Origin: Escherichia coli
Lineage (GTDB): Bacteria > Pseudomonadota > Gammaproteobacteria > Enterobacterales > Enterobacteriaceae
Length of the DNA stretch: 64,000 bases
Assembly: GCF_003018255.1 (NCBI RefSeq)
Contig: NZ_CP027440.1
Strand: one strand, 5' to 3'
Under the pieces are notes generated by a model that made no database searches, had not been told where the DNA came from, and worked only from the letters and a program-made list of their open reading frames with translations. Position 1 is the first letter of the stretch; the number at the start of each line of letters is the position of its first letter. Shown here one piece after another: positions 36,781-37,243 of the stretch. The position numbers and the translations under genes were made by a program.

Positions 36781-36810
36781 ACAAAAAACCCCCGCTTTAC
36801 AGCGAGGGTT
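36781..36810 (-). terminator. Intrinsic terminator of the alaW-alaX tRNA operon
   Basis: On the minus strand CCCTCGCT-GTAA-AGCGGGGG followed by TTTTTT. Confidence 0.75.
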
Positions 36811-36817
36811 TGAAATT

Positions 36818-36893
36818 TGGTGGAGCTAAGCGGGATCGAACCGCTGACCTCTTGCATGCCATGCAAGCGCTCTCCCAGCTGAGCTATAGCCCC
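36818..36893 (-). tRNA. alaX: tRNA-Ala (anticodon GGC)
   Basis: 76-nt reverse-complement match to GGGGCTATAGCTCAGCTGGGAGAGCGCTTGCATGGCATGCAAGAGGTCAGCGGTTCGATCCCGCTTAGCTCCACCA with encoded CCA. Confidence 0.95.
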
Positions 36894-36932
36894 ACGATGC
36901 GTTTACGTACCAAATTTGCTGGGTGCAAAATT

Positions 36933-37008
36933 TGGTGGAGCTAAGCGGGATCGAACCGCTGACCTCTTGCATGCCATGCAAGCGCTCTCCCAGCTGAGCT
37001 ATAGCCCC
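36933..37008 (-). tRNA. alaW: tRNA-Ala (anticodon GGC)
   Basis: Identical 76-nt copy, 39 bp upstream of alaX on the minus strand. Confidence 0.95.
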
Positions 37009-37030
37009 ATCACGTAAAGCTTGTCGAGTT

Positions 37031-37059
37031 GACGGGCGGCATCATATGAATTCCGCCCG
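37031..37059 (-). promoter_or_regulatory. Candidate sigma70 promoter of alaW-alaX
   Basis: Minus strand reads TTGACA-17 bp-TATGAT followed by GC-rich discriminator GCCGCCC, about 25 nt upstream of the mature tRNA 5' end. Confidence 0.6.
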
Positions 37060-37243
37060 AATGTGTCAACGGCAAATTGCCACGTGTAGTTTCAATCGCT
37101 GAAAAATCAGGCAAATGAACAATTTTGGAAAACCGCTCGCATTCAGTAGTTATTCATGTCACGGTTTCCTGTAAAGTGGTGTTATAAAATGAACTACTAA
37201 TAGACCCACATACATTCAGGGAATTGTTATGTTCAAGGAGAGG

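Follow-up and report, generated by a model that had tools for sequence, protein, structure and literature searches.

E. coli carries islands and prophages linked to tRNA genes, for example at selC, leuX, pheV, thrW, argW and ssrA. The alaW-alaX locus therefore raises a simple question: do its two tRNA genes border horizontally acquired DNA, or do they form an ordinary tRNA operon in an undisturbed stretch of chromosome? We are highly confident of the second answer, namely that alaW-alaX is a chromosomal operon with one sigma-70 promoter, a transcript of about 250 nt, two tRNAs, an intrinsic terminator and no mobile element, its promoter being likely of the stringent class. The window (the whole stretch of 64,000 nucleotides that was analysed) is E. 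coli chromosome running from dsdA to murQ, and over its whole length it is 99.76% identical to the chromosome of E. coli JNE23-011, the alignment having just one gap, of 1 nt. Because the window is collinear with that genome throughout, the annotation of JNE23-011 could be transferred to it, giving 65 features from dsdA to murQ, all of them core chromosomal genes. Furthermore, a 3-kb query around the locus, which covers pdeA, the two tRNA-Ala genes, yfeC, yfeD and gltX, found matches in 5,425 of 5,426 complete E. coli genomes.

Both tRNA genes lie on the minus strand, with alaW (36933-37008; b2397 in K-12) proximal to the promoter and alaX (36818-36893; b2396) distal to it. They had been described in the initial annotation as two identical tRNA-Ala(GGC) genes, and ARAGORN and Rfam RF00005 agree with that description: the genes are identical over all 76 nt, and each scores 63 bits across the full Rfam tRNA model (positions 1-71) against a gathering score of 29. 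The anticodon GGC occupies positions 34-36 of both genes according to ARAGORN, as it does in the K-12 annotation, and both tRNAs have the G3:U70 wobble pair, an alanine identity element, together with the A73 discriminator base. In the acceptor stem, the 5' strand GGGGCUA pairs with UAGCUCC, which is followed by ACCA; the CCA end is thus encoded. The identical repeat unit extends to 82 nt, and the first 13 nt of the 39-nt spacer between the genes (36894-36932, minus strand) resemble the trailer of alaX. This is the annotated and already known alaW-alaX operon of E. coli, whose product, tRNA-Ala2, reads GCC and GCU.

As the tRNAs point towards lower coordinates, an integrated element would be expected between alaX and pdeA. 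This interval is 207 bp long and contains the terminator and the pdeA leader, and nothing else. The gene in the slot that any island would occupy, just 3' of alaX, is the core gene pdeA (yfeA; 34421-36610, minus strand), whose 729-aa translation starts MFVEHNLIK... and is not an integrase. The initial annotation had found no integrase, direct repeat or foreign ORF on either side of the tRNA genes, and all three statements were borne out. There is no integrase or transposase among the 65 transferred features of the window, and all of these are core genes, including pdeA on the 3' side of alaX and yfeC-yfeD on the 5' side. The largest unannotated gap, of about 512 bp, is too small for an intact recombinase. 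A search of the 64 kb for attL/attR-like copies of the tRNA 3' end returned the two genes themselves alone, with no extra copy when up to 1 mismatch in 15 nt, 3 in 20, 5 in 25, 7 in 30 or 12 in 45 was tolerated. Neither a second copy of the tRNA 3' end nor an integrase gene, the two signs that would speak against an empty site, was found in the window. Similarly, a general search of the window for direct repeats yielded the tRNA genes and short families at chance level, with nothing att-like, and no atypical base composition was seen beside the tRNAs, where the G+C content remains at 0.48-0.50 from 33 to 39 kb.

Several other features of the window may be recorded here. A block of low G+C content (0.39-0.45) at positions 1-16000 holds emrYK, evgAS, yfdE, yfdV, oxc, frc, yfdX, ypdI and yfdY; beyond it the G+C content is 0.50-0.58. 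The block lies more than 20 kb from alaW-alaX and adjoins no tRNA gene. A REP-like palindromic element, TGCCTGATGCGACGCT..GCGTCTTATCAGGCCTACA, is present as two intergenic 38-nt copies (31479-31516 and 57280-57317) that are 95% identical. Finally, the pdeA leader contains an inverted repeat, AACAGGGGCCAGCCTGTT, at 36680-36697, with a T-rich plus-strand run after it; the loop of the repeat differs from that of K-12 by a 1-nt indel.

The search for traces of integration was extended to phages and to other proteobacteria. Among 50,697 phage records, none held a fragment of the tRNA at 95% identity or more, and the candidates for attP-like fragments were rejected as full-length phage tRNA-Ala genes or host fragments, all of them below 95%. 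An exact 51-nt stretch of the tRNA, from the anticodon arm to CCA, was used to collect 120 loci from species-representative genomes of alpha-, beta- and gammaproteobacteria. For the 88 downstream ORFs of 180 aa or more that lie nearest to the tRNA in these loci, no integrase occurs in the 25 of 75 Pfam families listed, which include NupC-type transporters, GDSL lipases, MASE1/EAL proteins and DUF218. Screening 1,645 ORFs for an R...HxxR...Y motif, a crude approach of uncalibrated sensitivity, gave implausible hits alone and no convincing tyrosine recombinase. Extra 20-nt matches to the tRNA 3' end in the 120 loci were considered as att repeats and discarded, as all lie some 330 nt or less from the main gene and are variant tandem tRNAs.

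Within E. coli, the junction at the tRNA 3' end is almost invariably intact: of 5,425 complete genomes, 5,373 have a contiguous segment of 421 bp over it, and 5,370 a contiguous segment of 1,001 bp. About 55 genomes of the 5,425 are without a contiguous locus (coverage below 80%). The variants found near this margin are known from three low-ranking records among the matches listed, where they comprise an IS200C insertion and single-copy loci, and no islands.

In E. coli EC581 (positions 1990-2700 of locus L126), IS200C lies exactly in the U-tract of the alaX terminator, at a site corresponding approximately to 36781-36788 of the window, and this strain has a single tRNA-Ala(GGC) copy. E. coli Z1323CEC0017 and AR_0058 likewise have a single alaW/alaX gene, and their loci are shorter by a unit of 115 bp, a loss consistent with recombination between the identical 82-nt repeats. 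Judged from rank positions, genomes with a single alaW/alaX gene make up no more than a few percent.

Four lines of evidence support the absence of an island: annotation transfer, a mismatch-tolerant repeat search, base composition and contiguity in approximately 99% of 5,425 genomes. No mobile element is present at alaW-alaX or has recently integrated there. For this genome, horizontally acquired DNA at the operon can be ruled out and, at population scale, alaW-alaX is no integration hotspot in E. coli.

A more searching version of the same question concerns the genes on either side. Upstream of alaW-alaX and on the same strand lies gltX (38033-39448, minus strand), and it directly precedes tRNA-Ala(GGC), again on the same strand, in Photorhabdus, Xenorhabdus, Proteus, Acerihabitans and Idiomarinaceae. 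The same adjacency occurs in Pseudomonas capsici, Cupriavidus and Polynucleobacter; at least seven of the collected loci have this arrangement. The order gltX-tRNA-Ala(GGC) is thus deeply conserved among gamma- and betaproteobacteria. Enterobacteriaceae and Erwiniaceae have one to three genes for YfeC-like HTH proteins between gltX and the tRNA, on the opposite strand. In the window these are yfeC and yfeD (37229-37982, plus strand), which encode paralogous small HTH regulators, are divergent from the alaW promoter and match the Pfam family PF07037 (YfeC-like) with E values of 4e-51 and 2e-61, respectively; yfeC-yfeD adjoin the tRNA pair across the Enterobacteriaceae. On the other side, alaX and nupC have pdeA between them at five loci (Escherichia, Enterobacter, Leclercia, Pseudescherichia and Kosakonia), whereas at another five (Citrobacter werkmanii, Citrobacter sp. 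Cu233, Superficieibacter, Klebsiella sp. BIGb0407 and Pantoea) pdeA is missing and alaX abuts nupC. The presence or absence of pdeA and of the yfeC-like genes reflects old indels beside the tRNA pair.

In the convergent intergenic region between yfeD and gltX (approximately 37983-38032), several E. coli lineages, represented at two of the loci, carry insertions of the IS200/IS605 family with tnpA and, in some cases, a decayed tnpB/insQ. None of these is present in the window.

Could pdeA, yfeC-yfeD or both be the domesticated remnants of an ancient, decayed insertion, so that the statement that there is no island would be true for recent events alone? The restriction of yfeC-like genes between gltX and tRNA-Ala(GGC) to Enterobacteriaceae and Erwiniaceae would fit this idea, as would the patchy occurrence of pdeA between alaX and nupC across genera. 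PdeA is also divergent, with an identity of 51-67% between genera where GltX and NupC exceed 90%, and YfeD passes the threshold for HTH_17, an excisionase-type HTH domain. However, an integrase, a tRNA-fragment repeat and a compositional anomaly are all absent, and no att-like repeat or integrase was found beside pdeA in particular. The yfeCD genes are on the promoter side of the operon, whereas integrases that target tRNA genes use the 3' side, and the pdeA and yfeCD blocks are both fixed in E. coli. Moreover, an indel beside a tRNA gene does not show site-specific integration, and ancestral gain is indistinguishable from repeated loss with the 30-odd genomes sampled. We therefore regard an ancient insertion as improbable. 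Its specific form, in which both flanks would be old insertions into a gltX-tRNA-Ala(GGC)-nupC backbone, with the sensor phosphodiesterase gene pdeA gained 3' of alaX by the ancestor of part of the Enterobacteriaceae and the excisionase-like HTH pair yfeC/yfeD gained 5' of the promoter, is equally doubtful. If it were true, today's 'empty' tRNA site would be a fully ameliorated former acquisition site.

The tRNA genes also have signals of their own for transcription. The initial annotation had assigned to them the promoter TTGACA-17-TATGAT with a GC-rich discriminator, and both elements were recovered. A promoter scan places the -35 hexamer TTGACA at 37064-37069 and the -10 hexamer TATGAT, after a 17-nt spacer, at 37041-37046, both on the minus strand; this is a match to 11 of 12 consensus positions. 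Directly after the -10 hexamer comes a discriminator of 8 nt, GCCGCCCG (37033-37040, minus strand), in which every base is G or C. The extent originally given for this unit, 36781-37060, does hold the operon but misses the -35 hexamer, which lies 4-9 nt beyond 37060. In the whole 64-kb window, sites matching at least 11 of 12 positions occur just twice, each directly upstream of a tRNA operon (alaW and valU), where a first-order Markov model gives a chance expectation of approximately 0.75 per 64 kb. From the end of the -10 hexamer to position 1 of the tRNA is a distance of 32 nt. From this geometry, we infer a start site at approximately 37032-37034, 7-9 nt past the -10 hexamer, which corresponds to approximately 2,518,255-2,518,257 in K-12; the primary transcript would then begin with a 5' leader at 37009-37034 on the minus strand.

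These elements could be followed through the 33 Enterobacterales loci looked at, the window included, of which 32 were scorable for the upstream promoter. A tandem tRNA-Ala(GGC) pair is present in 30 of the 33, with spacers of 27-87 nt. The gene is in single copy in Arsenophonus and in a Plesiomonas MAG, and in Kosakonia the first tRNA copy is cut off at the end of the locus. In all 32 promoters, TTGACA is followed by exactly 17 nt and TATNAT. The 8-nt discriminator averages 93% G+C over the 32 species, against 52% in the freely varying spacer, and its conservation while the spacer drifts argues for selection on the discriminator.

GC-rich discriminators are an established sequence hallmark of stringently controlled rRNA and tRNA promoters. 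On account of its own GC-rich discriminator, the alaW promoter most likely belongs to this class, and it would then be shut down by ppGpp and DksA during starvation, in keeping with the stringent type proposed at the outset. A strong, constitutive sigma-70 promoter, in which the GC-rich discriminator confers no negative stringent or growth-rate control on alaW, is a rather unlikely alternative: a near-consensus -35 hexamer and an optimal 17-nt spacer could indeed stabilise open complexes, but the discriminator is the most conserved part of the promoter outside the hexamers (93% G+C over all 32 species, against a variable spacer), and such discriminators are typical of rRNA and tRNA promoters under stringent control.

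One further feature of the promoter was considered and set aside. An inverted repeat, GTTGAC-ACATT-CGGGCGG / CCGCCCGTCAAC (37028-37070, minus strand), takes in the -35 hexamer, flanks the -10 hexamer on both sides and extends as far as the initial transcribed sequence, and as such might be thought of as an operator or a cruciform. Across 29 distinct Enterobacterales promoters, its inner arm is paired in just 53% of cells, in a pairing test that is biased because the structure was derived from E. coli itself. The outer arm showed no compensatory change across the same 29 promoters, since this arm consists of the invariant -35 hexamer and conserved initial transcribed sequence. The repeat was therefore rejected as a conserved element and is treated as incidental; it is not kept outside close relatives.

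At the other end of the operon, the clean hairpin terminator reported by the initial annotation was confirmed as an intrinsic terminator (36780-36811, minus strand) with an 11-bp stem (36811-36786), a 4-nt loop and a U-tract. Its sequence is AAACCCUCGCU-GUAA-AGCGGGGGUUU, then UUUG, and the run after the stem reads TTTTTTG in the DNA. The predicted fold has an energy of -18.1 kcal/mol (z = -4.6), and none of 200 shuffled sequences folds as well. All 11 pairs are kept in 16 Enterobacteriaceae, where the two top pairs of the stem have changed on both sides and are thus compensatory. For both promoter and terminator, the pattern of conservation looks like that of functional elements, and the comparative data provide a tidy example of a strongly conserved discriminator and terminator stem in Enterobacterales. 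The suggestion that these signals are chance matches, with transcription of the tRNAs coming from another source such as read-through from gltX, can draw on the chance-level frequency of weak hits in a simple scan of the 2-kb region (2 promoter-like and 4 terminator-like hits, where 2.5 of each would be expected), but it has a negligible probability and is effectively refuted by conservation, as the alaW site matches 11 of 12 positions, is one of two such sites within 64 kb and is kept at the same position in 32 species, the opposite-strand yfeC-yfeD stand between gltX and alaW in E. coli, and the terminator has compensatory substitutions.

Expression of the operon, as an ordinary tRNA operon with its own promoter and terminator, can be outlined from these elements. 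RNA polymerase containing sigma-70 would start approximately 7-9 nt after TATGAT and produce a dicistronic precursor of about 250 nt, with a short 5' leader, two tRNAs 39 nt apart and a 3' trailer that closes with the hairpin and U-tract. The 5' leader would be removed by RNase P, and maturation would probably proceed through RNase E and RNase P, after which exonucleases would trim the 3' end back to the encoded CCA, in that presumed order. The requirement of alaW-alaX maturation for RNase E and RNase P is attributed to Mohanty and Kushner (2022) in PMC10939160, and such exonucleolytic trimming is the general model as given in PMC2190699. If the promoter is of the rRNA/tRNA class, its open complexes would be short-lived and it would be shut off by ppGpp and DksA on starvation, which would tie the supply of Ala2 tRNA to growth rate. 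Brun et al. (1990) dealt with how transcription of alaW is regulated, according to the citation in PMC2695483. More recently, a 2024 study found that an alaWX deletion is viable, grows more slowly in minimal medium and changes the expression of 530 genes (PMC11480407); all four codons can be read by tRNA-Ala(UGC), which is why the deletion is tolerated (PMC11480407). The promoter, terminator, processing and deletion phenotype of alaW-alaX are thus already in the literature. This is a textbook tRNA operon of little significance beyond annotation, and the useful outcome of the analysis is the negative one.

When alaW-alaX is set beside tRNA-linked islands and prophages, what it shares with them is the presence of a tRNA gene and nothing more; it differs in lacking an integrase, a duplicated tRNA 3' segment, a compositional shift and a large-insert polymorphism. 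A closer comparison is available within the window itself, 2.7 kb away, in the valU-valX-valY-lysV operon (39707-40104, plus strand). This tRNA operon is likewise multi-copy, and its sigma-70 promoter is also near-consensus (TTGACT-16-TATAAT, 11 of 12 positions; 39662-39690, plus strand), the sole other site in the window with at least 11 matches, but it has four genes for two tRNA species and its promoter is divergent from gltX. The transferred annotation of the window has no island 3' of lysV. With the rrnB P1, tyrT, hisR and argX promoters, that of alaW shares near-consensus hexamers and a GC-rich discriminator immediately after the -10 hexamer; the region upstream of its -35 hexamer (ATTTGCCG) is not obviously an A+T-rich UP element. 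References on the GC-rich discriminators of the tyrT and hisR promoters are listed in PMC5137449.

The closest known system is the alaW-alaX operon of K-12 MG1655 (b2397-b2396). K-12 carries IS186 between nupC and pdeA, and the window is without IS186 there. Over 680 aligned bases, the two differ by a handful of SNPs, with a mean column identity of 98% and no functional element hit. From the -35 hexamer through alaX there are two base changes, at position -1 of alaW and in the spacer, both outside all promoter elements and tRNAs; the other differences are one each at approximately -45, in the trailer and in the terminator loop, together with a SNP and the 1-nt indel in the pdeA leader. In all other respects compared, the two operons correspond: the same genes with the same tRNA sequences stand in the same order and on the same strand, between the same neighbours (pdeA on one side and yfeC-yfeD-gltX on the other), and with the same promoter hexamers, discriminator and terminator stem.
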